Assembly: GCF_013315695.1 (NCBI RefSeq)
Contig: NZ_CP054353.1
Length of the DNA: 64,000 bases
Direction: 5' to 3' (one strand)
From: Escherichia coli
Lineage (GTDB): Bacteria; Pseudomonadota; Gammaproteobacteria; Enterobacterales; Enterobacteriaceae
Shown here: in pieces, positions 16,597 to 60,068 of the stretch
Numbering within the stretch: the first letter of the stretch is position 1
Layout of the letters: each line of letters opens with the position of its first letter
Notes under the pieces: model-generated
What the model was told of the DNA's origin: nothing
The model's input: only the letters and a program-made list of their open reading frames with translations
The model's database searches: none
Made by a program: the position numbers and the translations under genes

Positions 16597-16616
16597 TTGA
16601 TTTGAAAGAGAAAATA

Positions 16617-19600: not shown

Positions 19601-19721
19601 CGATCATAACTTACCTACCGCCTTTACCGTTGATGAAGAAGACGGCGAGATTGTTCGTAGCCTGAAAATTCGCCAGATCGAACCTGAATTCTTGAACCTG
19701 ATGTTTGCGGAGGAGGTTTAA
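16617..19721 (+). CDS. Mod-like amino-methyltransferase (beta-class, DPPY) with ~500-aa N-terminal domain of unknown function
   Basis: ORF 16602..19721; preferred start ATG 16617 (RBS gaaagag). DCLYIDPPYN (motif IV) precedes VLDYFAGSGTTSHAV (motif I) by ~270 aa, the order seen in Type III Mod enzymes. Stop overlaps SD of next gene. Confidence 0.85.
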   Translation: MSKYNELVKKLKEIFQIDRPELDFGIYRILNARADEINDYLDNKLKAKIQSALADAGNANKSELEHQLQLTIKAATDAGVDPADSPKVQELKKQLAAMASGANEHENAVFSHLLTFFSRYYDNGDFISKRRYKGNTYAIPYSGEEVMLHWANKDQYYIKSGENFANYSFKLEDGRKVSFKLLAADTAKDNRKDNELDRCFVLIEPHVRTKIDEEGDEYEQEYKPVEVVKNSSVVDGKLVETEELVIHFEYKAMKKGTKQDALVQSAISTILADKTVQQHWVDLAKRAPTEKNPSRTELERHLTTYTQRNTADYFIHKDLGGFLTNELDFYIKNEVMNLDNVQNAEVFANVEKQLRMIQCLRAVALELITFLAQIENFQKKLWTKKKFVVGHEYLVSLSNLSDSLYDKIRTNKGQHDEWVELYAVNKIPGYSFPFTKDFLYKNNGMILDTKYFDPSFKEVFLTELTNVDDNLDGLLINSDNYQAINFLEGRYKDSIDCLYIDPPYNTAASEILYKNEYKHSSWNSLMYERISKSYNLLKISAINFTAIDHAELYNLGKIKDEIYGEQNRIAVVTVQHNPKGRNQAKFFSENTEYMLVYAKDFNAANFNSVAIDEDVLLTFTEQDNIGRYRWENFIRARTSWSRANRPNNWYPLYVSSDLKSISVDYVDGYIEVYPTTKQGDFSWKNIKESFVELNKDNYFKAVNENGEIKIYHKYREQQVFKNLWIDKKYQSEFNGTNLLKNILGQSLFDYPKSLYAVQDAIKMSTPHNGIVLDYFAGSGTTSHAVINLNNSDNLCMKFINVEMGTHFNTVVIPRLKKIGYSNLWKQCKPIGKPQKMTIKYLKLESYEDALNNIQLRSYSLHQDIFDILVEDVKSEFALKYIFENELFYSLLNTDNFKKPFNYEMDIATDSAGATERKNIDLVETFNYLIGLHVKSIESDIARGYVRIEGTLPTGERTLILWRDCDKIGYEELNKYANRFDLYAKENTFDVIYINGDHNLPTAFTVDEEDGEIVRSLKIRQIEPEFLNLMFAEEV

Positions 19722-19723
19722 GA

Positions 19724-39370: not shown

Positions 39371-40555
39371 ATGGAACAGACCTGGCGCTGGTACGGCCCA
39401 AACGATCCGGTTTCTTTAGCTGATGTCCGTCAGGCGGGCGCAACTGGCGTGGTTACCGCGCTGCACCATATCCCGAACGGCGAAGTATGGTCCGTAGAAG
39501 AGATCCTCAAACGCAAGGCGATCGTTGAAGACGCAGGCCTGGTGTGGTCTGTCGTAGAAAGCGTACCAATTCACGAAGATATCAAAACCCACACTGGCAA
39601 CTATGAGCAGTGGATCGCTAACTATCAGCAGACTCTGCGCAACCTGGCGCAGTGCGGCATTCGCACCGTGTGCTACAACTTCATGCCGGTGCTCGACTGG
39701 ACCCGTACTGACCTCGAATACGTGCTGCCAGACGGCTCCAAAGCGCTGCGCTTCGACCAGATCGAATTCGCTGCATTCGAAATGCATATCCTGAAACGTC
39801 CAGGCGCGGAAGCGGATTACACCGAAGAAGAAATTGCTCAGGCTGCTGTTCGCTTCGCCACTATGAGCGACGAAGACAAAGCGCGTCTGACCCGTAACAT
39901 CATTGCTGGTCTTCCGGGCGCGGAAGAAGGCTACACCCTCGACCAGTTCCGTAAACACCTGGAGCTGTACAAAGATATCGACAAAGCGAAGCTGCGCGAA
40001 AACTTTGCCGTCTTCCTGAAAGCGATTATTCCAGTTGCTGAAGAAGTCGGCGTGCGTATGGCTGTTCACCCGGACGATCCGCCGCGCCCGATCCTCGGCC
40101 TGCCGCGCATTGTTTCCACCATTGAAGATATGCAGTGGATGGTTGATACCGTAAACAGCATGGCAAACGGTTTTACCATGTGCACCGGTTCCTACGGCGT
40201 GCGTGCTGACAACGATCTGGTTGATATGATCAAGCAGTTCGGTCCGCGTATTTACTTCACCCATCTGCGCTCCACCATGCGTGAAGATAACCCGAAAACC
40301 TTCCACGAAGCGGCGCACCTGAACGGTGACGTTGATATGTACGAAGTGGTGAAAGCGATTGTTGAAGAAGAACACCGTCGTAAAGCGGAAGGCAAAGAAG
40401 ACCTGATCCCGATGCGTCCGGACCACGGTCATCAGATGCTGGACGACCTGAAGAAGAAAACCAACCCAGGTTACTCCGCAATTGGTCGTCTGAAAGGCCT
40501 GGCCGAAGTTCGCGGTGTCGAACTGGCGATCCAGCGCGCTTTCTTTAGCCGTTAA
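39371..40555 (+). CDS. uxuA: mannonate dehydratase
   Basis: 394-aa product [40 protein letters not shown]... Confidence 0.93.
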
Positions 40556-40635
40556 TATCCACCGGCATGGCTGCGCGCCGTGCCGGTTCCTTCTTCCTTG
40601 CCGTCACTCTTTGAAGACGGATTCTGGAGTTTACG

Positions 40636-42096
40636 ATGACTACTATTGTTGACAGCAATCTGCCGGTTGCCCGCCCGTCATGGGATCATTCTCGTCTGGA
40701 ATCACGCATTGTGCATCTCGGTTGCGGGGCGTTTCACCGCGCGCACCAGGCGCTGTATACCCATCATCTGCTGGAAAGCACCGACAGCGACTGGGGCATC
40801 TGCGAAGTTAACCTGATGCCAGGCAACGACCGCGTGCTGATCGAAAACCTGAAAAAACAGCAACTGCTGTACACCGTAGCGGAAAAAGGCGCAGAGAGCA
40901 CCGAGCTGAAAATTATCGGTTCGATGAAAGAAGCGCTGCATCCGGAAATCGATGGCTGCGAAGGTATTCTCAACGCGATGGCGCGTCCGCAAACGGCGAT
41001 TGTCTCTCTAACGGTCACGGAAAAAGGCTACTGCGCTGATGCGGCAAGCGGTCAACTGGATCTCAATAACCCACTGATCAAGCACGATCTGGAAAACCCG
41101 ACTGCGCCGAAGTCCGCGATTGGTTACATCGTCGAAGCCTTGCGTCTGCGTCGTGAAAAAGGGTTGAAAGCGTTTACGGTGATGTCCTGCGATAACGTGC
41201 GTGAAAACGGTCATGTGGCGAAGGTCGCGGTACTGGGGCTGGCTCAGGCGCGTGACCCGCAGCTGGCGGCATGGATTGAAGAAAATGTCACCTTCCCGTG
41301 CACCATGGTTGACCGCATCGTTCCGGCGGCGACGCCAGAAACCTTACAGGAAATTGCTGACCAGCTGGGTGTTTACGACCCGTGCGCCATTGCCTGCGAA
41401 CCGTTCCGTCAGTGGGTGATTGAAGATAACTTCGTTAATGGTCGCCCGGACTGGGATAAAGTGGGCGCACAGTTCGTTGCAGACGTTGTGCCGTTCGAAA
41501 TGATGAAGCTGCGTATGCTGAACGGCAGCCACTCTTTTCTGGCGTACCTCGGTTACCTCGGCGGCTATGAAACCATTGCCGACACCATGACTAACCCGGC
41601 TTATCGCAAAGCGGCCTTTGCCCTGATGATGCAGGAACAAGCGCCAACGCTGTCGATGCCGGAAGGTACAGACCTGAACGCCTATGCGACGCTGCTGATC
41701 GAGCGTTTCAGCAACCCGTCTCTGCGTCACCGTACCTGGCAGATTGCGATGGACGGCAGCCAGAAGTTACCGCAGCGTCTGCTGGACCCGGTGCGTCTGC
41801 ACCTGCAAAACGGCGGCAGCTGGCGTCACCTGGCGCTGGGCGTGGCTGGCTGGATGCGTTACACCCAGGGCGTGGATGAGCAGGGTAATGCCATTGACGT
41901 GGTCGACCCGATGCTGGCGGAGTTCCAGAAGATCAACGCGCAGTATCAGGGCGCAGACCGCGTGAAAGCGCTGCTGGGCCTGAGCGGTATTTTTGCCGAT
42001 GATCTGCCGCAGAATGCCGACTTTGTTGGCGCGGTGACGGCGGCATATCAGCAGCTGTGCGAACGCGGTGCGCGCGAGTGTGTGGCTGCGCTGTAA
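40636..42096 (+). CDS. uxuB: D-mannonate oxidoreductase
   Basis: 486-aa product MTTIVDSNLPVARPSWDHSRLESRIVHLGCGAFHRAHQALYTHHLL... Confidence 0.93.
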   Translation: MTTIVDSNLPVARPSWDHSRLESRIVHLGCGAFHRAHQALYTHHLLESTDSDWGICEVNLMPGNDRVLIENLKKQQLLYTVAEKGAESTELKIIGSMKEALHPEIDGCEGILNAMARPQTAIVSLTVTEKGYCADAASGQLDLNNPLIKHDLENPTAPKSAIGYIVEALRLRREKGLKAFTVMSCDNVRENGHVAKVAVLGLAQARDPQLAAWIEENVTFPCTMVDRIVPAATPETLQEIADQLGVYDPCAIACEPFRQWVIEDNFVNGRPDWDKVGAQFVADVVPFEMMKLRMLNGSHSFLAYLGYLGGYETIADTMTNPAYRKAAFALMMQEQAPTLSMPEGTDLNAYATLLIERFSNPSLRHRTWQIAMDGSQKLPQRLLDPVRLHLQNGGSWRHLALGVAGWMRYTQGVDEQGNAIDVVDPMLAEFQKINAQYQGADRVKALLGLSGIFADDLPQNADFVGAVTAAYQQLCERGARECVAAL

Positions 42097-42118
42097 CTAA
42101 CTGATTACCCTACAGACT

Positions 42119-42167
42119 TACTGGTCAATCAAACTGATATTTGGTTGACCAGTTTTCGTTTTTTTGC
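42119..42167 (+). terminator. rho-independent terminator after uxuB
   Basis: Hairpin ctggtcaa...ttgaccag followed by ttttcgttttttt. Confidence 0.6.
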
Positions 42168-42242
42168 CCACCTGTACGTGCCAACTTCCAGTGCTAATGG
42201 TATAGTTTGAGATTAACGGGGGCCGTAAAATTGCCCGTTGTA

Positions 42243-42272
42243 GGCCGGATAAGGCGTTCACGCCGCATCCGG
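42243..42272. repeat. REP element
   Basis: ggccggataaggcgttcacgccgcatccggc, canonical REP-type palindrome. Confidence 0.6.
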
Positions 42273-42310
42273 CAAAAATTTGATTAACCGCACCTAACGG
42301 ACACAACACC

Positions 42311-43084
42311 ATGAAATCTGCCACCTCTGCGCAAAGACCTTACCAGGAAGTCGGGGCGATGATCCGCGATCTGATCATAAAGACGCCGTACAACCCTGGC
42401 GAACGGCTGCCGCCGGAGCGTGAAATTGCAGAAATGCTTGATGTCACGCGGACGGTGGTACGTGAAGCGCTGATCATGCTGGAGATCAAAGGGCTGGTGG
42501 AAGTGCGTCGGGGTGCCGGTATCTATGTTCTTGATAGCTCAGGCAGCCAGAACACAGACGGTCCGGATGCCAACGTCTGCAATGATGCCGGTCCTTTTGA
42601 GCTGTTACAGGCGCGTCAGTTACTGGAAAGTAACATCGCGGAATTTGCCGCCCTGCAGGCTACCCGCGAAGATATCGTCAAAATGCGTCAGGCATTGCAA
42701 CTGGAAGAGCGTGAACTGGCTTCCAGCGCGCCGGGCAGCAGCGAAAGTGGTGACATGCAATTCCATCTCGCCATTGCCGAAGCGACGCATAACAGCATGC
42801 TGGTGGAGCTGTTCCGTCAGTCCTGGCAGTGGCGGGAAAACAATCCGATGTGGATCCAGTTGCACAGCCATCTGGATGACAGCCTGTATCGCAAAGAGTG
42901 GTTGGGCGATCACAAACAGATCCTCGCCGCGTTAATCAAAAAAGATGCCCGAGCGGCGAAGCTGGCAATGTGGCAGCATCTGGAAAACGTTAAGCAACGT
43001 CTGCTGGAATTCTCGAACGTTGACGATATTTATTTTGACGGCTATCTGTTTGATTCATGGCCGCTGGATAAAGTCGACGCCTGA
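42311..43084 (+). CDS. uxuR: GntR-family repressor of the uxu regulon
   Basis: 257-aa product with N-terminal wHTH and FadR-like C-terminal domain. Confidence 0.92.
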   Translation: MKSATSAQRPYQEVGAMIRDLIIKTPYNPGERLPPEREIAEMLDVTRTVVREALIMLEIKGLVEVRRGAGIYVLDSSGSQNTDGPDANVCNDAGPFELLQARQLLESNIAEFAALQATREDIVKMRQALQLEERELASSAPGSSESGDMQFHLAIAEATHNSMLVELFRQSWQWRENNPMWIQLHSHLDDSLYRKEWLGDHKQILAALIKKDARAAKLAMWQHLENVKQRLLEFSNVDDIYFDGYLFDSWPLDKVDA

Positions 43085-43243
43085 CTTATTATAATAAGCG
43101 CAAGGGTAAACGTTCCTTGCGCTTTCTTAAATTAAGAAGTCGCAATGAGTATTACTTTGTAAATTGCAGGGTATTGTTTAGCTATCTGTATAACCTGAAC
43201 GTGAGTACTCATTCTTCTCAGTGGCTATTTACCAATATAATTC

Positions 43244-44011
43244 GGTAATGACTCCAACTTATTGATAGTGTTTTATGTTCAGATAATGCCCGATGACTTT
43301 GTCATGCAGCTCCACCGATTTTGAGAACGACAGCGACTTCCGTCCCAGCCGTGCCAGGTGCTGCCTCAGATTCAGGTTATGCCGCTCAATTCGCTGCGTA
43401 TATCGCTTGCTGATTACGTGCAGCTTTCCCTTCAGGCGGGATTCATACAGCGGCCAGCCATCCGTCATCCATATCACCACGTCAAAGGGTGACAGCAGGC
43501 TCATAAGACGCCCCAGCGTCGCCATAGTGCGTTCACCGAATACGTGCGCAACAACCGTCTTCCGGAGCCTGTCATACGCGTAAAACAGCCAGCGCTGGCG
43601 CGATTTAGCCCCGACATAGCCCCACTGTTCGTCCATTTCCGCGCAGACGATGACGTCACTGCCCGGCTGTATGCGCGAGGTTACCGACTGCGGCCTGAGT
43701 TTTTTAAGTGACGTAAAATCGTGTTGAGGCCAACGCCCATAATGCGGGCTGTTGCCCGGCATCCAACGCCATTCATGGCCATATCAATGATTTTCTGGTG
43801 CGTACCGGGTTGAGAAGCGGTGTAAGTGAACTGCAGTTGCCATGTTTTACGGCAGTGAGAGCAGAGATAGCGCTGATGTCCGGCGGTGCTTTTGCCGTTA
43901 CGCACCACTCCGTCAGTAGCTGAACAGGAGGGACAGCTGATAGAAACAGAAGCCACTGGAGCACCTCAAAAACACCATCATACGCTAAATCAGTAAGTTG
44001 GCAGCATCACC
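43244..44011 (-). mobile_element. IS1 (768 bp), simple insertion with 9-bp target duplication
   Basis: Ends ggtaatgactccaacttattgatag ... cagtaagttggcagcatcacc; insA (43681..43956) and insB (43259..43762) ORFs; ATATAATTC at 43235-43243 and 44012-44020. Inserted 4 codons before the stop of the split yjiC-like gene. Confidence 0.93.
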
Positions 44012-44418
44012 ATATAATTCCATTCACCATTTTTTAATTCAAACAGCTCTGGAAGAGATGACGGTTGCAGAGTCATACGTTTGAGTGGTGCATTTTCATC
44101 ACCCGGGATAACTTTATATCCCATTTTTGCATGGATCTCCGCTGTACCGGGATAGGCTTCTATACCAATTATTGGGTCATTACCCAACTCAATATTAGCA
44201 TTAAGTAATGCGGCAAGGGCGAATCCGGAAGAGTTTGCCACCCCTGAGACAGTCATTATCTGATCAATATAGATATCAATCCTTGGCTGCTCATTGGTCC
44301 ATCTTTTTGCCTGAGAAGTTGGAAGAGTTGAAATATATCCTATCGTGGTTCCGGCGTAACCTGGAACATTGCAGCCAGGGCCTAATGTTATTTCATGAAC
44401 TGTATAGTCCTCAACAGG
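44012..44418 (-). pseudogene. C-terminal half of an IS1-split gene (yjiC-like by position)
   Basis: Minus-strand frame is open from the IS1 junction at 44418 (PVEDYTVHEITLGPGC...) through ...ELKNGEWNY into the IS1 at 44011; bypassing the IS1 the frame continues IGK-stop at 43225-43227. Confidence 0.6.
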
Positions 44419-45186
44419 GGTAATGACTCCAACTTACTGATAGTGTTTTATGTTCAGATAATGCCCGATGACCTTGTCATGCAGCTCCACCGATTTTGAG
44501 AACGACAGTGACTTCCGTCCCAGCCTTGCCAGATGTTGTCTCAGATTCAGATTATGTCGCTCAATGCGCTGAGTGTAACGCTTGCTGATAACGTGCAGCT
44601 TTCCCTTCAGGCGTGATTCATACAGCGGCCAGCCATCCGTCATCCATACCACGACCTCAAAGGCCGACAGCAGGCTCAGAAGACGCTCCAGTGTGGCCAG
44701 AGTGCGTTCACCGAAGACGTGCGCCACAACCGTCCTCCGTATCCTGTCATACGCGTAAAACAGCCAGCGCTGACGTGATTTAGCACCGACGTAGCCCCAC
44801 TGTTCGTCCATTTCAGCGCAGACAATCACATCACTGCCCGGTTGTATGCGCGAGGTTACCGACTGCGGCCTGAGTTTTTTAAGTGACGTAAAACCGTGTT
44901 GAGGCCAACGCCCATAATGCGTGCACTGGCGCGACATCCGACGCCATTCATGGCCATATCAATGATTTTCTGGTGCTTACCGGGCTGAGAGGCGGTATAA
45001 GTGAACTGTAGTTGCCATGTTTTACGGCAATGAGAGCAGAGATAGCGCTGATGTCCGGCAGTGCTTTTGCCGTTACGCACCACGCCTTCAGTAGCGGAGC
45101 AGGAAGGACATCTGATGGAAATGGAAGCCACGCAAGCACCTTAAAATCACCATCATACACTAAATCAGTAAGTTGGCAGCATTACC
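44419..45186 (-). mobile_element. IS1 variant copy (768 bp)
   Basis: Divergent insA/insB (Ins[17 protein letters not shown]...); left flank ctcaacagg is the reverse complement of CCTGTTGAG, which flanks the fourth IS1 copy at 58846-58854. Confidence 0.9.
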
Positions 45187-45456
45187 AAATTTTAATTACA
45201 CTTAAGGTGTATATTTTCTATGCAAGCCATCAATTAAAGAGGTGTAATGTGCTGATGACTATTTGTAATCGTTATACATTCTGACCTGGAGTCAGAAGGT
45301 ATTTCTCTGTCGGTGTGTTCACAGGCAGTGTGGTTGATTACATGAAATTCAGTACATTTGCAGTCTCGTTGCCCTTCTCGCCTGCCTTTCGTCATTACCG
45401 ACGGTATTGAATTTCGTTTTGCCCGTTGGGGTTCTCCGGACAAGGAGTTGTTTGTT

Positions 45457-46689
45457 ATGCCACGTTTTTTTGCCCGCCATGCCGCCACGCTGTTTTTCCC
45501 GATGGCGTTGATTTTGTATGATTTTGCCGCGTACCTGTCGACGGACCTGATTCAGCCGGGGATCATTAATGTGGTCCGTGATTTTAATGCCGATGTCAGT
45601 CTGGCCCCGGCAGCCGTCAGTCTCTATCTCGCGGGCGGTATGGCGTTACAGTGGCTGCTGGGGCCGCTTTCCGACAGGATTGGCCGCAGGCCGGTGCTGA
45701 TTACCGGGGCGCTAATATTTACCCTTGCCTGCGCTGCGACAATGTTCACAACGTCTATGACACAGTTTCTTATCGCGCGTGCAATTCAGGGCACCAGTAT
45801 CTGTTTTATTGCCACCGTTGGTTATGTCACGGTGCAGGAGGCGTTCGGCCAGACAAAAGGGATCAGGTTGATGGCGATTATCACCTCCATCGTACTGATT
45901 GCGCCGATTATCGGCCCGCTTTCCGGCGCAGCTCTGATGCACTTTGTACACTGGAAAGTCCTTTTTGCCATCATTGCGATTATGGGTTTTATCTCATTTG
46001 TTGGCTTACTGCTGGCGATGCCAGAGACGGTGAAGCGCGGCGCGGTTTCATTTAGCGCCAAAAGCGTCTTGCGCGATTTTCGTAATGTCTTTTGCAATCG
46101 GCTGTTCCTCTTTGGTGCAGCAACCATCTCTTTAAGCTATATCCCAATGATGAGCTGGGTGGCTGTCTCGCCGGTGATCCTGATTGACGCAGGCGGCTTA
46201 ACGACCTCGCAGTTCGCCTGGACACAGGTTCCGGTATTCGGCGCGGTGATTGTCGCGAATGCCATCGTGGCGCGTTTCGTTAAAGATCCGACCGAACCGC
46301 GCTTTATCTGGCGTGCCGTACCCATTCAACTGGTTGGCCTCGCGCTGTTGATTATCGGCAATCTGCTGTCACCGCACGTCTGGCTGTGGTCGGTGCTGGG
46401 CACCAGTCTGTATGCTTTCGGGATTGGTTTGATTATCCCGACCTTATTCCGCTTTACGCTGTTTTCCAATAAATTACCGAAAGGGACCGTCTCCGCATCG
46501 CTGAATATGGTGATCCTGATGGTGATGTCTGTCTCGGTCGAAATCGGCCGCTGGCTGTGGTTTAACGGCGGTCGCTTGCCGTTTCATCTGTTAGCCGTCG
46601 TGGCGGGCCTTATCGTCGTTTTCACCCTGGCGGGATTGCTTAATCGCGTGCGCCAACATCAGGCTGCCGAGCTGGCGGAGGAGCGGTGA
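45457..46689 (+). CDS. mdtM: MFS multidrug efflux transporter
   Basis: 410-aa product [35 protein letters not shown]...; 12-TM MFS; yjiN-mdtM synteny. Confidence 0.85.
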
Positions 46690-46729
46690 TTTTTGCGCGA
46701 TCCTGCCGTCAGGCTCTATTCTTAACATT

Positions 46730-48010
46730 ATGAATAAACTCATTGAACTCAGACGCGCCAAAATGTTGGCGCTCTCTTTACTGCTTATCGCCGCTGCTAC
46801 CTTTGTCGTTACGCTGTTTTTGCCACCCAATTTTTGGGTGAGCGGTGTGAAGGCGATTGCTGAAGCGGCGATGGTCGGCGCGCTGGCAGACTGGTTTGCG
46901 GTGGTGGCGCTGTTTCGCCGCGTGCCGATTCCGATCATTTCTCGTCATACGGCGATTATCCCGCGTAATAAAGACCGGATTGGCGAAAATCTCGGTCAGT
47001 TCGTGCAGGAAAAATTTCTCGATACCCAATCGCTGGTGGCATTGATTCGACGTCACGAACCGGTGTTGTTGATTGGCAACTGGTTTAGTCAGCCAGAAAA
47101 CGCCCGCCGCGTTGGTCAGCATCTGTTGCAGATCATGAGTGGTTTTCTTGAACTGACCGATGATGCGCGTATTCAGCGCCTGCTTAAGCGCGCAGTCCAT
47201 CGGGCGATTGATAAGATCGATCTTTCCGGCACCAGTGCGTTGATGCTGGAGAGTATGACCAAAAACGATCGTCATCAGGTGCTGCTGGATACGCTGATCG
47301 CGCAGTTGATTGCTCTTCTCCAGCGCGATAAATCGCGCAAGTTTATTGCCCAGCAAATTGTTCGCTGGCTGGAGAGCGAGCATCCGCTGAAAGCCAAAAT
47401 TTTGCCTACTGAATGGCTGGGCGAACATAGCGCGGAGTTGGTTTCTGACGCGGTGAATTCTTTGCTTGATGATATCAGCCGCGATCGTGTACATCAGATC
47501 CGCCATGCGTTTGATCGCGCCACTTTTGCCCTGATCGACAAGTTGAAAAACGATCCGGAAATGGCAGCGCGAGCCGATGCCGTAAAAAGTTATCTGAAAG
47601 AAGATGAAGCTTTTAACCGCTATCTCAGTGAATTGTGGGGGGATTTACGGGAATGGCTGAAAGCGGATATCGACAGTGAAGATTCTCGTGTGAAAGAACG
47701 TATCGCGCGGGCGGGTCAATGGTTTGGCGAAACGTTAATTGCCGATGATGCCTTGCGGGCGTCGTTAAATGGTCACCTGGAACAAGCCGCGCACCGCGTC
47801 GCGCCTGAGTTTTCCGCATTCCTGACGCGCCACATCAGCGATACGGTAAAAAGCTGGGATGCGCGGGATATGTCGCGGCAAATAGAGTTAAATATCGGCA
47901 AAGATCTGCAGTTTATCCGTGTCAACGGTACGCTGGTCGGCGGTTGTATTGGGCTAATTTTGTATTTGCTGTCGCAGCTCCCGGCCTTATTCCCCCTCAG
48001 CAATTTTTAG
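46730..48010 (+). CDS. yjiN: DUF445 inner membrane protein
   Basis: 426-aa [33 protein letters not shown]... Confidence 0.8.
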
Positions 48011-48125
48011 AAATCCATGAAAAACTAAGTGGCTAACCGCGAGAGAGATCAAATAAACCACACTAAAAGAATGGTAATAATGTGGCCTCTTTTCATTATC
48101 TCCCGTGGTACGGGGAAGGAAAATC

Positions 48126-51233
<3,108 letters not shown>

Positions 51234-51300
51234 CAGGCTGGCATGTTTCACCTTTTTGTTATTAACTTGTTAACAACAAAAATGACAAACAAGGTTAAAC

Positions 51301-52479
51301 ATGCCTTCGCCCTCGCATCCCGTAGAACGCTTTTCTTTCAGCACCGCGCTTTTCGGGATGCTGGTTCTGACCTTAGGTATGGGTTTAGGCCGCTTCCTTT
51401 ATACGCCTATGTTGCCCGTCATGATGGCGGAAGGATCGTTTTCATTTAGCCAGCTCTCGTGGATTGCCAGCGGCAACTATGCGGGGTATCTGGCTGGCAG
51501 TCTGCTATTTTCGTTTGGCGCATTTCACCAGCCATCGCGCCTGCGCCCATTTCTGTTGGCTTCTGCCCTAGCGAGCGGGTTGTTGATCCTCGCAATGGCA
51601 TGGTTGCTGCCATTTATTCTGGTGTTATTGATTCGCGTCCTGGCGGGTGTCGCCAGCGCCGGTATGCTGATTTTTGGTTCGACGCTGATTATGCAGCACA
51701 CGCGCCATCCTTTTGTGCTGGCAGCTTTGTTTTCTGGCGTTGGCATTGGCATCGCACTGGGCAATGAATATGTTCTGGCAGGCCTGCATTTTGACCTCTC
51801 CTCGCAAACGTTATGGCAAGGCGCCGGGGCGCTTTCTGGCATGATGCTGATTGCACTTACGCTTTTAATGCCCTCGAAAAAACACGCCATCACACCAATG
51901 CCATTGGCAAAAACGGAGCAACAGATAATGAGCTGGTGGTTACTGGCTATTCTGTACGGCCTGGCGGGATTTGGTTATATCATCGTCGCGACTTACCTGC
52001 CGCTCATGGCGAAAGATGCAGGCTCACCATTGTTAACCGCCCATCTCTGGACGTTAGTCGGCTTATCAATTGTGCCTGGTTGCTTTGGCTGGCTATGGGC
52101 AGCAAAACGTTGGGGGGCTTTGCCCTGCCTGACGGCGAATTTGCTGGTGCAGGCTATCTGTGTGCTGCTTACTCTCGCCAGCGACTCGCCTCTCTTGCTT
52201 ATCATCAGCAGTCTTGGTTTTGGCGGTACCTTTATGGGCACGACATCTCTGGTGATGACTATCGCCCGCCAACTGAGCGTACCGGGAAATCTCAATCTTT
52301 TAGGCTTTGTGACGCTCATTTACGGCATTGGACAAATCCTCGGCCCGGCGCTGACCAGTATGCTCGGCAATGGAACATCGGCGCTTGCCGGCGCCACTCT
52401 CTGCGGCGCGGCGGCGTTGTTTATTGCTGCGCTTATCAGCACAGTACAATTATTTAAGCTGCAAGTGGTCACTTCATGA
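51301..52479 (+). CDS. yjiJ: MFS-type inner membrane protein (DUF1228)
   Basis: 392-aa polytopic protein. Confidence 0.8.
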
Positions 52480-52491
52480 GGAGTGTTTCCC

Positions 52492-53046
52492 TTACCACTC
52501 AAGAAATTCGACCGCAACCGTTGATGTCAGCCAGACCCCGTTTTCCGCTTGCCAGAAAGGGAGGCCTCGTTTCGCCATTTCCTGTGCTTTGACGGTTAAA
52601 ATAACCGGCGATCCGTGTCTTGCTCCCACTTTGCGTGCCGTTGCTTCATCAGCAGAGAGATGTACGTAGTGACGCTCACCTGCAATCAGCCCCTGTTTTT
52701 TTATCTCGTCAAGGAAACGGCTTGCCGTACCGTGGTAGAGAAACTGTGGCGGTGTTTTTTCGGCAAAGGAAATAGCGACCTGCGAAGTCGAATGCCCCTG
52801 AACCGCGCGGATGCACCTACCATCACTGGAATAACTAAAACGCTTTTTATCGCTGGTGGCAACCACGGTATCCAGCAATGCACGGGTTAACCGCTTGCCC
52901 GCTTTTTGGGCACAAAGTATGAGCTTATCGATATCCGCCCATCCTTCACGGTCCAGTACGATACCAATCGCCTCCGGTTTGTGTCGGAGGACAAAACTTA
53001 AAAACTTGCTCGTATCCGCCAGCTCTTTTTCGTTGTACTTTGCCAT
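52492..53046 (-). CDS. kptA: RNA 2'-phosphotransferase (Tpt1 family)
   Basis: 184-aa product [43 protein letters not shown]... Confidence 0.9.
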
Positions 53047-53295
53047 CGCGTTTTCGTCCCTGGATTATCTGTTTTTTATTTACTATGTCATTGTCACTGG
53101 GTTTATGAATTTTCTGCAACTCAATCCTGCGTAGAACCTTTTCCACACAGCGTAATTTTACCGCTATGCAAAAAACGCATAGTCAGAAACATACTTGCAT
53201 TTTCCCCATACCCACATGGCTGATAAGGTTTTTCAGCTCCAGGAATTTTCCTGGCTCAAGCAACACACAAACACAAAAAAACAATGGGGATTGTT

Positions 53296-53979
53296 ATGAC
53301 ACAACAAGGGGATGCTGTAGCCGGGGAGCTGGCGACAGAAAAAGTGGGCATTAAAGGGTATCTGGCTTTTTTTCTCACCATAATCTTTTTTTCCGGTGTT
53401 TTTTCCGGGACAGACAGTTGGTGGCGCGTTTTTGATTTTTCCGTTCTGAACGGATCGTTTGGGCAACTGCCTGGTGCGAACGGAGCCACCACCTCGTTTC
53501 GCGGCGCGGGTGGCGCGGGGGCTAAAGATGGCTTTCTCTTTGCGCTGGAGCTGGCACCGTCAGTCATTCTCTCTCTGGGGATTATTTCAATTACCGATGG
53601 TCTTGGCGGATTACGCGCCGCGCAGCAGTTAATGACGCCAGTGCTAAAACCGTTGTTGGGCATTCCAGGGATCTGCTCGCTGGCGCTGATCGCTAACCTG
53701 CAAAACACCGATGCCGCCGCAGGTATGACCAAAGAGCTGGCGCAGGAAGGTGAAATTACCGAACGCGATAAAGTGATTTTCGCCGCATATCAAACCAGCG
53801 GTAGCGCCATTATCACCAACTACTTCTCTTCCGGCGTCGCGGTGTTTGCCTTTCTGGGCACGTCCGTAATCGTACCTTTAGCAGTCATCCTGGTGTTTAA
53901 ATTTGTCGGAGCCAACATTTTGCGCGTCTGGCTTAACTTCGAAGAACGTCGCAACCCAACGCAAGGAGCGCAAGCATGA
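53296..53979 (+). CDS. yjiH: nucleoside-recognition-domain inner membrane protein
   Basis: Start taken at MTQQGDAVAGELA within ORF 53284..53979. Confidence 0.8.
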   Translation: MTQQGDAVAGELATEKVGIKGYLAFFLTIIFFSGVFSGTDSWWRVFDFSVLNGSFGQLPGANGATTSFRGAGGAGAKDGFLFALELAPSVILSLGIISITDGLGGLRAAQQLMTPVLKPLLGIPGICSLALIANLQNTDAAAGMTKELAQEGEITERDKVIFAAYQTSGSAIITNYFSSGVAVFAFLGTSVIVPLAVILVFKFVGANILRVWLNFEERRNPTQGAQA

Positions 53980-54437
53980 CAACTCAGGTCCGCAAAAACG
54001 TCATGGATATGTTTATCGATGGTGCGCGCCGTGGCTTTACTATCGCCACGACCAACCTGCTGCCAAACGTGGTGATGGCGTTTGTCATCATTCAGGCGCT
54101 GAAAATTACCGGCCTGCTCGACTGGGTGGGGCATATCTGTGAACCCGTAATGGCGCTGTGGGGATTACCCGGTGAAGCGGCAACCGTCCTTTTAGCCGCA
54201 TTAATGAGTATGGGTGGCGCAGTCGGTGTTGCCGCCAGTCTGGCAACCGCTGGCGCATTAACCGGTCACGATGTCACCGTTTTACTGCCCGCGATGTATT
54301 TAATGGGCAACCCGGTGCAAAATGTCGGTCGCTGCCTGGGGACAGCCGAAGTGAATGCCAAATATTACCCGCATATCATTACGGTCTGCGTGATTAACGC
54401 ATTGCTGTCGATCTGGGTTATGCAGCTTATTGTTTAA
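53976..54437 (+). CDS. yjiG: SpmB-like inner membrane protein
   Basis: 153-aa ORF overlapping yjiH stop (ATGA). Confidence 0.8.
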   Translation: MTTQVRKNVMDMFIDGARRGFTIATTNLLPNVVMAFVIIQALKITGLLDWVGHICEPVMALWGLPGEAATVLLAALMSMGGAVGVAASLATAGALTGHDVTVLLPAMYLMGNPVQNVGRCLGTAEVNAKYYPHIITVCVINALLSIWVMQLIV

Positions 54438-54449
54438 CAAGGAGTTACC

Positions 54450-55622
54450 ATGATTGATTATACCGCAGCCGGTTTTACCCTGCTGCAGGGAGCGCATTTG
54501 TATGCGCCGGAAGATCGGGGAATTTGCGATGTCCTCGTCGCTAACGGCAAAATTATCGCCGTTGCCAGTAATATCCCTTCTGACATTGTACCGGACTGCA
54601 CGGTTGTCGATCTCAGCGGGCAGATCCTCTGCCCAGGTTTTATTGATCAACACGTCCATTTGATTGGCGGTGGCGGCGAAGCAGGTCCCACGACGCGCAC
54701 GCCGGAAGTGGCGTTAAGTCGTCTGACGGAAGCAGGCGTCACGTCAGTGGTTGGTCTGCTGGGCACCGACTCTATCTCTCGCCACCCGGAATCCCTGCTC
54801 GCCAAGACCCGTGCGCTCAATGAAGAAGGCATCAGCGCCTGGATGCTGACCGGCGCTTATCATGTCCCTTCCCGCACTATTACGGGTTCCGTGGAAAAAG
54901 ACGTGGCGATTATCGATCGCGTGATTGGCGTGAAATGCGCCATCTCTGATCACCGTTCTGCCGCACCGGACGTTTATCACCTGGCTAATATGGCGGCGGA
55001 ATCCCGCGTTGGCGGTTTGCTCGGCGGTAAACCTGGCGTCACCGTGTTCCACATGGGCGACAGCAAAAAGGCGTTACAGCCTGTCTATGACCTGCTGGAA
55101 AACTGCGATGTGCCGATTAGCAAGTTGCTGCCGACCCACGTTAACCGCAACGTTCCGTTGTTTGAGCAGGCGCTGGAGTTCGCGCGCAAAGGCGGCACCA
55201 TCGATATCACCAGCAGCATTGACGAACCAGTCGCCCCTGCCGAAGGTATTGCCCGCGCCGTTCAGGCGGGTATTCCGCTGGCACGCGTCACCCTCAGCTC
55301 CGACGGCAACGGTAGCCAGCCGTTCTTCGATGACGAAGGGAATTTAACCCATATCGGTGTTGCCGGTTTTGAAACGTTGCTGGAAACCGTGCAGGTGCTG
55401 GTCAAAGATTATGATTTCAGTATCAGCGATGCCCTGCGCCCGCTCACCAGTAGCGTAGCCGGTTTCCTTAACCTGAGCGGGAAAGGCGAAATTCTGCCAG
55501 GCAATGACGCAGACTTACTGGTCATGACGCCAGAATTACGTATTGAGCAGGTATACGCTCGCGGCAAGCTGATGGTCAAAGACGGCAAAGCCTGCGTGAA
55601 AGGAACGTTTGAAACGGCATAA
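54450..55622 (+). CDS. iadA: isoaspartyl dipeptidase
   Basis: 390-aa amidohydrolase with HVHLIGGGGE metal-binding motif. Confidence 0.9.
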   Translation: MIDYTAAGFTLLQGAHLYAPEDRGICDVLVANGKIIAVASNIPSDIVPDCTVVDLSGQILCPGFIDQHVHLIGGGGEAGPTTRTPEVALSRLTEAGVTSVVGLLGTDSISRHPESLLAKTRALNEEGISAWMLTGAYHVPSRTITGSVEKDVAIIDRVIGVKCAISDHRSAAPDVYHLANMAAESRVGGLLGGKPGVTVFHMGDSKKALQPVYDLLENCDVPISKLLPTHVNRNVPLFEQALEFARKGGTIDITSSIDEPVAPAEGIARAVQAGIPLARVTLSSDGNGSQPFFDDEGNLTHIGVAGFETLLETVQVLVKDYDFSISDALRPLTSSVAGFLNLSGKGEILPGNDADLLVMTPELRIEQVYARGKLMVKDGKACVKGTFETA

Positions 55623-55686
55623 ACGGTTGTCAGCCGCCCGAATGGACGTAGAATGCCCGCAAGGGCGGCTGACAGAGTAAAACGTA

Positions 55687-56598
55687 ATGGATGACTGTGG
55701 TGCGGTTTTGCATAATATTGAAACTAAATGGCTTTATGATTTTCTGACCCTGGAAAAATGCCGCAATTTTTCCCAGGCAGCAGTCAGTCGCAACGTCTCG
55801 CAACCGGCATTCAGCCGCCGCATCCGTGCGCTGGAACAGGCGATTGGCGTTGAATTGTTTAACCGCCAGGTGACGCCGCTGCAACTCTCGGAACAAGGTA
55901 AAATATTCCATTCGCAGATCCGCCATCTGTTGCAACAGTTAGAGAGCAACCTTGCAGAACTCCGTGGTGGCAGCGATTACGCGCAACGCAAAATTAAAAT
56001 AGCCGCTGCACACTCTCTTTCCCTCGGGCTGTTACCGTCCATTATCAGCCAGATGCCGCCGCTCTTTACCTGGGCAATTGAAGCTATTGATGTCGATGAA
56101 GCGGTCGATAAACTGCGTGAAGGGCAAAGTGACTGTATTTTTTCCTTTCACGACGAAGATTTGCTGGAAGCGCCGTTTGACCACATTCGCTTATTTGAAT
56201 CTCAATTGTTCCCCGTTTGCGCCAGTGACGAACACGGAGAAGCACTTTTTAACCTCGCGCAGCCACACTTTCCGTTACTGAATTACAGCCGCAACTCCTA
56301 CATGGGGCGATTGATTAATCGCACCCTGACGCGCCACAGTGAGTTAAGTTTCAGCACCTTTTTTGTCTCTTCGATGAGCGAGCTTTTAAAGCAGGTTGCC
56401 CTCGACGGCTGTGGGATTGCCTGGCTACCGGAATACGCCATCCAACAAGAAATTCGCAGCGGGCAGCTCGTTGTACTGAATCGGGACGAACTGGTGATCC
56501 CGATTCAGGCCTATGCATACCGGATGAATACCCGCATGAATCCAGTTGCCGAACGCTTCTGGCGTGAACTGCGCGAGCTGGAGATTGTGCTTAGCTGA
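55687..56598 (+). CDS. hypT: LysR-type transcriptional regulator (hypochlorite-responsive HypT/YjiE)
   Basis: 303-aa LysR-type product with N-terminal wHTH ([29 protein letters not shown]). Confidence 0.85.
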
Positions 56599-56983
56599 CA
56601 TTCTCCAGCGTCGCACTGCGCCAACCGCCATTATCCCAGACCAGATCAAACGTTAGCGATTCATCGTCGTGATACAGCATTATCTCAAGGCTGATCGCCA
56701 GAGTGTGGCAGTACGCTTCTTTCAAATTAACCTGCAACGCCGCAATCCGTGGCTCATGAAATAACAGTGCAGAACGCAGCTGACGGCAATACCAGCTCTG
56801 GAGATGTTTGTCGCTCGGGTTATGCACTTGCCACTCGGGCATGCCTGAAACAAGTAATGACGGTAATGCCGAATGAGGAGAATTAAAAAGAGTGAGGAGA
56901 TCGCTGCATACTGATTTACGCAGCGGTGACGTTTTATTGCCTGAAATTTCAGGTAAAACAGCCTGAAGTGATTGGCGCATCAT
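56591..56983 (-). CDS. iraD: anti-adaptor protein IraD
   Basis: 130-aa product [25 protein letters not shown]...; convergent with and overlapping hypT 3' end. Confidence 0.8.
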
Positions 56984-57440
56984 TTTGCGCACTCCTGACG
57001 TTTAGCAACATATGCGGCTTGCCCTGAACACCGGGCACCACTGTATTGATGCTCATTTTCCATAGCCATTCCCTTTTGTTCATTACATCCATGTCAGTCT
57101 GAGACAGGCCTGAATCCTGTCAGCAAAGTATAAAACCTTACTTGCCTATGAATATCTACTGACTTTTCAGGAAAAAAGTCATGATTTGATAAAAATCATC
57201 AAACTCAAAAAAAAACCGCTAGTATATTCTGAATATTCCGAATAGTTACGTAGATGAAAATACTTGTCACCACCGCTACTTAATTCCGGTGGGAAATTAT
57301 TTATTTCCGCATAATCAGCCATGTATTATTTAAAACAATTAGTTTGTAAATAATATAAATTGATAACATATCAAATACATCAAAAATACCATTCACAGGC
57401 ATTATTAATATAGACATCAATATAGCAACATCAAATTCCA

Positions 57441-58208
57441 GGTAATGACTCCAACTTATTGATAGTGTTTTATGTTCAGATAATGCCCGATGACTTTGTC
57501 ATGCAGCTCCACCGATTTTGAGAACGACAGCGACTTCCGTCCCAGCCGTGCCAGGTGCTGCCTCAGATTCAGGTTATGCCGCTCAATTCGCTGCGTATAT
57601 CGCTTGCTGATTACGTGCAGCTTTCCCTTCAGGCGGGATTCATACAGCGGCCAGCCATCCGTCATCCATATCACCACGTCAAAGGGTGACAGCAGGCTCA
57701 TAAGACGCCCCAGCGTCGCCATAGTGCGTTCACCGAATACGTGCGCAACAACCGTCTTCCGGAGCCTGTCATACGCGTAAAACAGCCAGCGCTGGCGCGA
57801 TTTAGCCCCGACATAGCCCCACTGTTCGTCCATTTCCGCGCAGACGATGACGTCACTGCCCGGCTGTATGCGCGAGGTTACCGACTGCGGCCTGAGTTTT
57901 TTAAGTGACGTAAAATCGTGTTGAGGCCAACGCCCATAATGCGGGCTGTTGCCCGGCATCCAACGCCATTCATGGCCATATCAATGATTTTCTGGTGCGT
58001 ACCGGGTTGAGAAGCGGTGTAAGTGAACTGCAGTTGCCATGTTTTACGGCAGTGAGAGCAGAGATAGCGCTGATGTCCGGCGGTGCTTTTGCCGTTACGC
58101 ACCACCCCGTCAGTAGCTGAACAGGAGGGACAGCTGATAGAAACAGAAGCCACTGGAGCACCTCAAAAACACCATCATACACTAAATCAGTAAGTTGGCA
58201 GCATCACC
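57441..58208 (-). mobile_element. IS1 (768 bp), simple insertion with 9-bp target duplication
   Basis: InsA/InsB proteins identical to the copy at 43244-44011; CAAATTCCA on both flanks. Start set from the ORF track; my base count of the printed lines gave 57439, a 2-bp ambiguity. Confidence 0.9.
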
Positions 58209-58431
58209 CAAATTCCAATTAGTAATAAGATATGCTTTTAAATTGCATGCAAATAATTTTAAATGAGCGTTTTTTGATACTTTAGAGTGTTTCCCACCAT
58301 TTAATATCACTGTGTAGAGTTGATATCACTACAACAGAAACATGCATGTCATTTGTTTACTTCTCTTTTTACTACAGAAAAATTTATCTATTTTTCTAAG
58401 CATCAGTGAAATACTCATAAAGGTAACTATT

Positions 58432-58854
58432 ATGTCTATGCCATTAAGCAATGCCCTTCAGAGTCAAATTATTACAGATAATCACTTCCTTCATCATCCA
58501 AAAGTCGACAGTGAGTTAACACGTAAACATGAACGTGGACGCATGGATACGGAAAATATCTATCTTCCGCCTCTTGCTCGTGGCAATAACCATAATTACG
58601 ATGGAAAAAGCGTTGTCGAAATTAGAAAACTTGATATTAGTAAAGAGTCCTGGCCATTTAATTATGTGACAGAAACATGCAGAGAATTCAATGGTATTAC
58701 AACAACAGGACGTATGCTCTATCGAAACTTGAAAATCACCTCAGCTTTAGACGAAATATATGGTGGTATATGTAAAAAGGCGCATGCTGCCACAGAGTTA
58801 GCAGAAGGATTACGGCTAAATTTATTTATGAAAAGCCCTTTCGATCCTGTTGAG
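58432..58854 (+). pseudogene. N-terminal half of the same IS1-split gene (yjiC-like by position)
   Basis: AT-rich frame MSMPLSNALQSQIITDNHFLHHPKVDSELTRK...LFMKSPFDPVE runs into the IS1 at 58855; joins the 44418 fragment across the CCTGTTGAG duplication to give ~276 aa. Confidence 0.6.
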
Positions 58855-59622
58855 GGTAATGCTGCCAACTTACTGATTTAGTGTATGATGGTGATTTTAA
58901 GGTGCTTGCGTGGCTTCCATTTCCATCAGATGTCCTTCCTGCTCCGCTACTGAAGGCGTGGTGCGTAACGGCAAAAGCACTGCCGGACATCAGCGCTATC
59001 TCTGCTCTCATTGCCGTAAAACATGGCAACTACAGTTCACTTATACCGCCTCTCAGCCCGGTAAGCACCAGAAAATCATTGATATGGCCATGAATGGCGT
59101 CGGATGTCGCGCCAGTGCACGCATTATGGGCGTTGGCCTCAACACGGTTTTACGTCACTTAAAAAACTCAGGCCGCAGTCGGTAACCTCGCGCATACAAC
59201 CGGGCAGTGATGTGATTGTCTGCGCTGAAATGGACGAACAGTGGGGCTACGTCGGTGCTAAATCACGTCAGCGCTGGCTGTTTTACGCGTATGACAGGAT
59301 ACGGAGGACGGTTGTGGCGCACGTCTTCGGTGAACGCACTCTGGCCACACTGGAGCGTCTTCTGAGCCTGCTGTCGGCCTTTGAGGTCGTGGTATGGATG
59401 ACGGATGGCTGGCCGCTGTATGAATCACGCCTGAAGGGAAAGCTGCACGTTATCAGCAAGCGTTACACTCAGCGCATTGAGCGACATAATCTGAATCTGA
59501 GACAACATCTGGCAAGGCTGGGACGGAAGTCACTGTCGTTCTCAAAATCGGTGGAGCTGCATGACAAGGTCATCGGGCATTATCTGAACATAAAACACTA
59601 TCAGTAAGTTGGAGTCATTACC
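58855..59622 (+). mobile_element. IS1 variant copy (768 bp), inverted relative to the copy at 44419-45186
   Basis: Left end ggtaatgctgccaacttactgat; insA 58910..59185 and insB 59104..59607 encode the same variant proteins as the 44419-45186 copy; left flank CCTGTTGAG. Confidence 0.9.
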
Positions 59623-59778
59623 CGACAGCGAGGTGTTTAGTGTGCCATGTCAGGCGAGAAATTCTATTGGATGAATCAAGTCCAACTTACTCATTGTCAA
59701 TTTCATGGTTGATTATTCGAAACGTGATGCTATTTCCAACATCAACGCTATAATTGCAGAATAATTGTAGATACATTT

Positions 59779-60068
59779 TTGTATATACAATTAGGGATGG
59801 CAATTATGCCAATGGAGTTTGAATGGGATGAAAACAAGGCCAAAAGTAATCGGGTGAAACATGGCATCCGCTTTGAAGATGCGGTGTTATTGTTTGATGA
59901 TCCACAACATTTGTCACAGCAAGAACGCATAGAAAACGGTGAGTATCGCTGGCAGACATTACGGCATCGTGGTTATTCTGGTTGCGCATACCATCCGTTT
60001 CGAAAGCGGAAATGAAATTATTCGAATCATCAGTGCACGAAAAGCAGATCGTAAAGAGAGGAATCGCT
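59779..60068 (+). pseudogene. BrnT-like (DUF497) toxin, frameshifted
   Basis: N-terminal MPMEFEWDENKAKSNRVKHGIRFEDAVLLFDDPQHLSQQERIENGEYRWQT then an aberrant tail; the expected C-terminus (...RFESGNEIIRIISARKADRKERNRYEHG) is encoded in another frame at ~59990-60070. Confidence 0.6.

Follow-up and report, generated by a model that had tools for sequence, protein, structure and literature searches.

A 14-kb inversion in an Escherichia coli chromosome bracketed by two IS1F copies, with one target duplication from yjiC divided between them

Background

Target-primed intramolecular attack "in trans" by a transposable element yields an inversion together with inverted target repeats, an outcome typical of IS1/Tn9 and IS26 (PMC9330008). 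One-step intramolecular replicative transposition is documented for IS1 (PMC9330008, PMC4471558), and intrachromosomal IS1 transposition has been reported as replicative (PMC12428005); these three sources constitute the IS1-specific support, our literature search having found no paper on IS1 with duplicative inversion. Here we analyse a 64-kb stretch of an E. coli chromosome (the window), in which comparison with relatives reveals a flipped segment of about 14 kb bracketed by two inverted IS1F copies. As in the "in trans" cases of IS26, Tn4401 and IS1/Tn9 (He et al. 2015, PMC4471558; reviewed in PMC9330008), an inverted IS pair brackets the inverted segment, a repeat of target length (9 bp for IS1) stands once at each copy in mutually inverted orientation, the ancestor has one copy, and either copy still has one old junction. 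Unlike those cases, the window is chromosomal and carries IS1F, instead of IS26 on a resistance plasmid, and its donor had no target duplication, hence the single visible repeat pair; the single step is what we infer for it.

Inversions bounded by IS1 and IS150 in experimentally evolved E. coli B reportedly arose by homologous recombination between inverted IS copies. The present inversion resembles them in being IS-bounded, with exchanged flanks and split duplications, but both copies pre-exist there, whereas here relatives have just one copy at the locus and a second appears only where the inversion is present. The site itself can be compared with the "empty" immigration control region between yjiN/mdtM and yjiA described by Raleigh and co-workers (reviewed in PMC12707154): the hsd/mcr/mrr cassette is likewise absent between mdtM and yjiA, but the window's site is occupied by IS1F and a brnTA toxin-antitoxin pair.

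Extent and gene content of the inverted segment

We located the exact breakpoints by blastn of the window against strain LSN03-016011/A, a close un-inverted relative whose coordinates are given as L003. The window is collinear with L003 up to L003 position 4349, a left flank that includes the yjiC 3' half; window 44418-57440 corresponds to L003 18001-4979 on the minus strand with 99.78% identity, and window 58209-58855 to L003 4987-4340, again on the minus strand. The unique inverted segment is 45187-58854 and begins within yjiC (DUF2686), which the left breakpoint cuts into two halves that now stand 14 kb apart in opposite orientation, so that yjiC is inactivated by the event. The features are listed below, with the annotation of the first part of the inverted segment transferred from strain AF3.

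43244-44011, minus strand: IS1A-type copy A, simply inserted at the yjiC 3' end and flanked by ATATAATTC at 43235-43243 and 44012-44020
44012-44418, minus strand: yjiC 3' (C-terminal) half in ancestral orientation; AF3 annotation "DUF2686 family protein, missing N-terminus"
44419-45186, minus strand: IS1F-type copy B, IRR left and IRL right; the IRR/yjiC junction is new, the IRL/mdtM-upstream junction (aaattttaa...) ancestral
45187-57431: inverted unique segment, first part, all genes reversed relative to K-12; in order mdtM, yjiN, yjiM, yjiL, ytiA, yjiK, yjiJ, kptA, yjiH, yjiG, iadA, hypT, iraD, idlP, ytiD, ytiC
45457-46689, plus strand: mdtM, within the inverted segment
between yjiJ and yjiH, minus strand: kptA, within the inverted segment
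56591-56983, minus strand: iraD, within the inverted segment
57301-57417, minus strand: ytiC, within the inverted segment
57441-58208, minus strand: IS1A-type copy C, simply inserted upstream of ytiC at a distance of 24 bp and flanked by CAAATTCCA at 57432-57440 and 58209-58217
58432-58854, plus strand: yjiC 5' (N-terminal) half, inverted; AF3 annotation "DUF2686, missing C-terminus"
58855-59622, plus strand: IS1F-type copy D, IRL left and IRR right; the IRL/yjiC junction is new, the IRR/brnT-side junction (cgacagcga...) ancestral
59623-61361: right flank, un-inverted, with brnT, brnA and yjiA
59806-60082, plus strand: brnT, frameshifted
60069-60371, plus strand: brnA
60405-61361, minus strand: yjiA

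When annotations are compared with K-12 MG1655, the order of the block from mdtM to iraD is reversed, which together with the blastn alignment upholds the reversal proposed in a preliminary description of this DNA. The extent given there, iraD to mdtM, needs correction at one end, the breakpoint sitting within yjiC and not at iraD; that account left out yjiC, which the AF3 annotation and blastn identify as the target, present in two halves. It had also raised the question of whether the window's order is ancestral, and this is answered in the negative by the standard order of K-12 and five other genomes (LSN03-016011/A, EC190486, 98193, 300709 and ET881).

The IS1F pair and the divided target duplication

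Copies B and D show 0 mismatches over 768 nt with one another and about 70 with the two IS1A-type copies (70 against copy A), and a repeat search returned arms at 44418-45186 and 58855-59623 of 769 nt that are 100% complementary. Both copies are 768 bp long with IRL GGTAATGCTGCCAACTTACTGAT and IRR GGTAATGACTCCAACTTACTGAT, in keeping with the imperfect termini of about 23 bp starting GGTRATG that characterise IS1. Both have uninterrupted reading frames for insA (91 aa) and insB (167 aa), with the A6C motif AAAAAAC, as expected for the insA/insB' -1 frameshift, at IS1F position 307. The IS1F of K-12 (NC_000913.3, 4518472-4519239) has the same length and terminal repeats and differs from the window copy at 5 of 768 positions, but its insB is pseudogenised, whereas the AF3 copy identical to that of the window is labelled by PGAP as a non-pseudo "IS1 family transposase, programmed frameshift", i.e. 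a functional frameshifted transposase.

The 9-mer CTCAACAGG forms the end of the yjiC 3' half at 44410-44418, adjoining IRR of copy B, and its reverse complement CCTGTTGAG forms the end of the 5' half at 58846-58854, adjoining IRL of copy D. Each of the two occurs once in the 64-kb window, and the probability of a chance 9-mer match at two fixed positions is 3.8e-6. Because the intact yjiC of LSN03-016011/A contains the 9-mer once (L003 position 4341), its two mutually inverted occurrences in the window identify it as a true target duplication, of the 9-bp length usual for IS1. The outer flanks are unlike each other (at IRL of copy B, read in that copy's orientation, ttaaaattt; at IRR of copy D, cgacagcga) and form no second duplication. 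Each present copy has one ancestral and one new junction, copy B keeping the mdtM-side/IRL junction and copy D the IRR/brnT-side junction, a structure expected of one-step intramolecular replicative transposition and equally of an insertion with later homologous recombination.

Several of these points had been anticipated: the inverted pair of one IS1 variant, the single 9-bp duplication shared out over both copies, and the canonical (IS1A-type) copies as simple insertions, which their intact duplications ATATAATTC and CAAATTCCA confirm. The preliminary description was silent on the second flank pair. As regards the IS1A-type copies, copy A predates the inversion, since it occupies the identical site in LSN03-016011/A, ET881, AF3 and MSB1_4I, and copy C postdates it, since it was not found in AF3 or MSB1_4I, which both share the inversion.

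Relatives and genome survey

LSN03-016011/A, a relative and not a direct ancestor, carries a single IS1F, between mdtM and brnT, with 1 mismatch over 768. Its donor flanks, ...AATTAAAATTT before and CGACAGCGAGG... after the element, are exactly the two ancestral junction flanks of the window, and they show that the donor IS1F in relatives was already devoid of a target duplication of its own; yjiC is intact in this strain, with no IS1F at the CTCAACAGG site.

We next consider the survey sample of 5,426 complete genomes. Two genomes alone match the new junctions over their full length in a single piece, AF3 from the UK and MSB1_4I from Australia; both are inverted, so that all three assemblies of the clade, the window included, carry the inversion. 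Neither an un-inverted genome with two copies nor a simple IS1F insertion at the CTCAACAGG site was found among the 5,426, an absence that argues only weakly, the clade comprising just three assemblies. At least 1112 of the 5,426 genomes contain the IRR|brnT junction, and at least 1006 have mdtM-IS1F-brnT as one place; with these and a further junction count of at least 450, and with two left-flank alleles, rearranged donors are not cleanly countable. Between mdtM and yjiA, IS1F and brnTA here occupy the site that in K-12 holds the immigration control region, and a resident IS1F at the border of that region is seen in about one fifth of complete E. coli genomes.

A second rearrangement was found in strain 720632, where a 6-kb inversion (mdtM..yjiJ') is bounded by two identical IS copies of 767 nt. 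The donor junctions are the same as those of the window lineage, and the target, GTGGATTGC in yjiJ, is again 9 bp and split likewise. Its junction occurs in no other genome of the 5,426, nor does an un-inverted two-copy state for that event; it is an independent event from the same donor with the same architecture. Other matches followed up revealed no further inversion: DAX4 is not comparable (yjiC-IS1-yjiA with the whole block absent, the IS in opposite orientation and no brnTA), DETEC-P622 has a simple IS1 insertion in uxuR, and ET881 shows the standard order with a "dienelactone hydrolase" left-flank allele.

Mechanism of the inversion

The second IS1F copy and the flip both appear to derive from one old resident IS1F attacking nearby yjiC. 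We consider it somewhat probable that this happened as a duplicative inversion, in one step of intramolecular replicative transposition. At the outset one old IS1F copy would reside between brnT and the region upstream of mdtM, where K-12 has its restriction immigration control region. Transposase would link both ends of this element to CTCAACAGG in yjiC, 13.7 kb distant in the same chromosome and cut with a 9-bp stagger, and replication through IS1F after this "in trans" attack (the Shapiro-type intramolecular route) would generate the second copy in inverted orientation. The same step would invert everything between donor and target (the yjiC 5' half, ytiC/ytiD/idlP/iraD ... mdtM), place the 9-bp target once at either new junction, the two occurrences in opposite orientations, and knock out yjiC, with the mdtM|IS1F and IS1F|brnT junctions unaltered. 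The IS1A-type element upstream of ytiC would have inserted later, in the window's own lineage. The observations agree with this course: the inverted IS pair brackets the inverted segment, the target repeats are inverted, each copy has one ancestral junction, and LSN03-016011/A, again as a relative and not the direct ancestor, has a single donor IS and none at the target.

The preliminary description had attributed the rearrangement to homologous recombination between two pre-existing copies; of this, the inversion and the split duplication stand, while recombination as the cause is not established, the closest un-inverted relative having one IS1F and 0 of the 5,426 genomes combining the yjiC insertion with an un-inverted order. 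Under such a two-step course, IS1F would make a simple insertion in yjiC, with a direct 9-bp duplication and in inverted orientation to the resident copy, and a RecA-dependent crossover between the 768-bp inverted repeats would then flip 13.7 kb and spread the duplication over both copies. The end product predicted is the one seen, since the two routes are formally identical in end structure and are not separable by sequence alone. Recombination between pre-existing copies would predict two different duplications, each split over the pair; the CTCAACAGG pair is split, and ttaaaattt and cgacagcga are unmatched, but the donor has no duplication in relatives, and the flanks weigh neither way. IS1 often makes simple insertions, IS-IS recombination is the usual textbook source of IS-bounded inversions, and yjiC has been hit repeatedly by simple IS1 insertions in the same orientation, two IS1A insertions lying 11 and 13 bp from the CTCAACAGG site and oriented as an intermediate would be. 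Position 190 is C in copy B and T in copy D of AF3 and MSB1_4I, and T in both copies of the window, a pattern that suggests gene conversion, i.e. homologous interaction between B and D. Polymorphisms inside the IS were also considered as crossover markers and gave no mechanism signal, the window copies being identical and AF3 and MSB1_4I having one differing site. Against the two-step course, however, the un-inverted two-copy genome is absent among the 5,426 for the yjiC event as well as for the 720632 event, all three clade assemblies are inverted, and two rare events would be needed instead of one, and this twice independently from the same donor. We regard recombination between two resident copies as quite possible but short of probable.

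Two further explanations fare much worse. Identical 768-bp repeats are a classic source of misjoins, and a repeat-induced misassembly over the IS1 copies could mimic an inversion, but the same four junctions recur base for base in AF3 and MSB1_4I, complete genomes of different countries of origin that were sequenced independently. The copies in these genomes can be told apart (by the C/T difference at position 190 and, in MSB1_4I, by a copy B lacking 14 bp), and a 9-bp target duplication is not something a misjoin would produce; an artefact is very unlikely. That the window preserves the ancestral orientation and K-12-type genomes a derived one is close to inconceivable, as K-12 and every other inspected genome have the standard order with yjiC intact or simply interrupted, and a split yjiC with a duplicated 9-mer can only be derived, the intact yjiC of relatives refuting the idea.

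Implications and further observations

Duplicative inversion by a resident IS1F would be a textbook type of transposon-driven rearrangement, which is already known and presents no challenge to current understanding. Its importance is modest and lies in offering a clean, fully resolved natural inversion made by IS1, with an identifiable donor and 9-bp target, an identifiable arrangement before the event, and a second, independent event from the same donor. The inversion serves as a clade marker for the lineage of AF3, MSB1_4I and the window, and its identical 768-bp repeats 14 kb apart are a warning for assemblers. A broader idea, put forward tentatively and in our judgement rather unlikely, is that the old resident IS1F bordering the immigration control region acts as a recurrent local generator of one-step yjiC-mdtM duplicative inversions, possibly also of adjacent deletions, with mid-yjiC as a preferred IS1 target; if true, this would be natural-population evidence for Shapiro-type intramolecular replicative transposition by a chromosomal IS1.

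GC skew of the inverted block against its flanks was noise at 12 kb, with no sign flip discernible. Judging from the K-12 map, the inversion would have made mdtM…hypT, formerly head-on to replication, co-directional with it.

IS1 copies and gene order

We observe four IS1 elements in the window, copies A to D from left to right:

Copy A, 43244-44011, IS1A type, perfect direct 9-bp duplication ATATAATTC
Copy B, 44419-45186, IS1F type, reads ctcaacagg-IRR…IRL-aaattttaa
Copy C, 57441-58208, IS1A type, perfect direct 9-bp duplication CAAATTCCA
Copy D, 58855-59622, IS1F type, reads cctgttgag-IRL…IRR-cgacagcga

Copies A and C differ at 2 of 768 positions and, with their perfect direct duplications, are simple insertions, as the preliminary description held. 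Copies B and D are identical in sequence and inverted in orientation, and their variant, roughly 9% divergent from the IS1A type, is IS1F, since the annotated IS1F of K-12 MG1655 mismatches it at only 5 of 768 positions. Both retain intact insA (91 aa) and insB (167 aa) frames and the A6C frameshift motif. The 9-mer is split over the two IS1F copies as first described, one repeat per copy and mutually inverted. Each 9-mer occurs once in the 64-kb window (chance match at two fixed positions, p = 3.8e-6), and the remaining two flanks of B and D do not match each other.

The gene order, annotated from the near-identical complete genome AF3 (NZ_OZ547117.1), is as follows:

Left: uxuR; IS1A; yjiC 3' half (minus strand); IS1F
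Block: mdtM, yjiN, yjiM, yjiL, ytiA, yjiK, yjiJ, kptA, yjiH, yjiG, iadA, hypT, iraD, idlP, ytiD, ytiC
Right: yjiC 5' half (plus strand); IS1F; brnT (frameshifted), brnA, yjiA, yjiX, btsT

The order in K-12 is uxuR, yjiC, ytiC … iraD, hypT … mdtM, the immigration control region (~19 kb) and yjiA, so the block is inverted in the window. The iraD-to-mdtM inversion proposed earlier is thus borne out in being reversed relative to K-12, but its left breakpoint lies inside yjiC (DUF2686) and not between uxuR and iraD.

The pre-event arrangement

Strain LSN03-016011/A (L003) is 99.8-99.9% identical to the window over the region, has the standard gene order and also carries copy A. Its yjiC is intact (843 bp) and contains CTCAACAGG once (position 4341), and its single IS1F (1/768 mismatch), located with the mdtM upstream region on one side and brnT on the other, reads …AATTAAAATTT-IS1F-CGACAGCGAGG…, which are exactly the flanks of B and D that do not match each other in the window. 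The blastn alignments are:

Window 40070-44418, L003 1-4349, plus
Window 44418-57440, L003 18001-4979, minus
Window 58209-58855, L003 4987-4340, minus
Window 58855-64000, L003 17233-22378, plus

It follows from this map that the window holds two copies of the 9 bp found at L003 4341-4349, that the ancestral mdtM-side-IRL junction is kept in B and the ancestral IRR-brnT junction in D, and that both yjiC junctions are new. Separately, window 58209-58855 (yjiC 5' half and yjiC-ytiC intergenic region) shares just 96.5% identity with LSN03-016011/A (22 mismatches over 648 bp), against 99.8-99.9% in the surrounding 18 kb, which could reflect either a patch of recombination or local hypervariability.

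Distribution of the inversion

Among 5,426 complete genomes, single-piece full-length matches to the yjiC-IS1F-IRR and yjiC-IS1F-IRL junctions were confined to AF3, from blood in the UK, and MSB1_4I, from a rectal swab in Australia, and a simple IS1F insertion at this yjiC site was found in none. Both genomes have the window's inversion without copy C, so this copy was inserted afterwards, within the lineage of the window. At position 190 (window 44997 and 59044) B and D of the window both carry T; in AF3 and MSB1_4I only D does, and B keeps the ancestral C, which is also present in the IS1F of LSN03, 720632, 300709 and K-12. Copy B of MSB1_4I has in addition a 14-bp deletion. Because the copies differ at position 190 in these two genomes, the perfect B/D identity in the window is secondary and is most simply attributed to gene conversion between B and D.

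The resident IS1F as a recurrent donor

The whole immigration control region of K-12 (L002 17791-36909, rpnD to mrr) is replaced by the resident IS1F together with brnTA, which explains why this donor lacked a target duplication from the outset. Its IRR-brnT junction occurs in 1112 of the 5,426 complete genomes and its mdtM-side junction in 450, indicating an old, widely inherited element.

Upon examining strain 720632 (L006, NZ_CP025842.1 2397759-2405562), we find the donor junctions on opposite strands, 7 kb apart, with the annotated order brnT, IS1F, yjiJ 5' part, yjiK … mdtM, IS1F, rest of yjiJ, kptA … and the flanks tcgctgtcg-IRR…IRL-gcaatccac and attaaaattt-IRL…IRR-gtggattgc. The architecture is that of the window, with the old junctions kept and a different 9-bp target, GTGGATTGC of yjiJ, divided between the copies in inverted orientation. 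This inversion spans 6 kb (mdtM..yjiJ'), is bounded by IS1F and arose independently from the same donor; its junction was found in no other of the complete genomes searched. The two IS1F copies are identical (767 nt) and share a 1-bp deletion. As this deletion puts the transposase out of frame, an element already defective before the inversion must have been mobilised in trans.

The resident IS1F beside brnT (window 58855-60400; L003 17233-18800; L007 11256-12120) has two left-flank alleles, one being the K-12-like mdtM upstream region (450 genomes) and the other a "dienelactone hydrolase" gene fragment, with homology between them stopping 21 bp inside mdtM. The BrnTA toxin gene brnT (window 59806-60082) is frameshifted in the window lineage and LSN03-016011/A and intact in 720632, 300709 and ET881; brnA is intact. 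Strain DAX4 (L009, NZ_CP126343.1) has uxuR, yjiC, IS1 and yjiA, lacking the iraD…mdtM block and brnTA with IS1 at the junction, an arrangement suggestive of a deletion of the iraD…mdtM segment in association with IS1.

yjiC as an IS1 target

Three independent IS1 insertions in the same orientation fall within 13 bp in the middle of yjiC (window 44400-44440 / 58830-58860), namely the window's IS1F event and two simple IS1A insertions:

EC190486, L004 3132-3899, intact duplication CGAAAGGGC
98193, L005 3134-3901, intact duplication AAAGGGCTC

Many more IS1 copies lie in or beside yjiC in other genomes, and by this insertion record the middle of the gene is a local IS1 hot spot.

One step or two

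In intramolecular replicative (target-primed) transposition, an "in trans" attack duplicates the IS in inverted orientation, simultaneously inverts the intervening DNA and leaves one target repeat with each copy, mutually inverted; the window has the structure expected of such a reaction. This reaction has been described for IS26 and Tn4401 (PMC4471558) and is listed as typical for IS1/Tn9 (PMC9330008), and intrachromosomal IS1 transposition is reported to be replicative (PMC12428005). From the genome comparisons, we lean slightly towards such a single duplicative inversion as the origin of the window's arrangement, since the relatives are single-copy, the genome collection contains no un-inverted intermediate for either independent event, the clade's three assemblies all carry the inversion and fewer events are needed.

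The recombination between inverted copies put forward in the preliminary description fits the end product, but one-step transposition yields an identical one, and the sequence is compatible with both. An inverted simple IS1F insertion followed by a RecA-dependent crossover is a plausible route to which we give rather less than even chances: yjiC has been hit repeatedly by simple IS1 insertions, those of IS1A in EC190486 and 98193 lie 11 and 13 bp away, with intact duplications, in the orientation expected of the intermediate, and the gene conversion suggested at position 190 implies that the copies do recombine. An artefact or an ancestral order is, even jointly, very improbable; repeat collapse as the source of the arrangement is excluded by independent assemblies with distinguishable copies and by the genuine 9-bp duplication.

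Consequences and other features of the window

The inversion switched the strand of the genes mdtM to hypT and split yjiC, which is predicted to be inactivated. At the IS copies, mdtM, with IS1F 270 bp ahead of its start codon, and brnT both keep the context they had in the ancestor. Copy C, the later IS1A insertion, is 24 bp from ytiC on its upstream side, within the distal part of the region upstream of iraD. IS-bounded and duplicative inversions have long been known, and the present case adds a further, well-resolved example that also marks the lineage; the recurrence of the IS1F bordering the immigration control region as a donor and the IS1 hot spot in mid-yjiC are by-products of mild interest.

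Elsewhere, both the window and AF3 have an internal stop codon in fimB, the gene for the type 1 fimbrial switch recombinase, and fimA is intact in the window with an internal stop annotated in AF3 (window 28752-29354 and 30909-31463). By collinearity with AF3 (99.86% identity), window ~1000-24500 is a low-GC island containing Ag43, YeeR, an antirestriction protein and the CbtA/YeeU toxin-antitoxin pair. The island also holds a three-gene SNF2-related / DNA methyltransferase / DEAD-box helicase cluster (~13705-23104), which looks like a defence system and is followed by fragments of a phosphorothioate-dependent restriction endonuclease.
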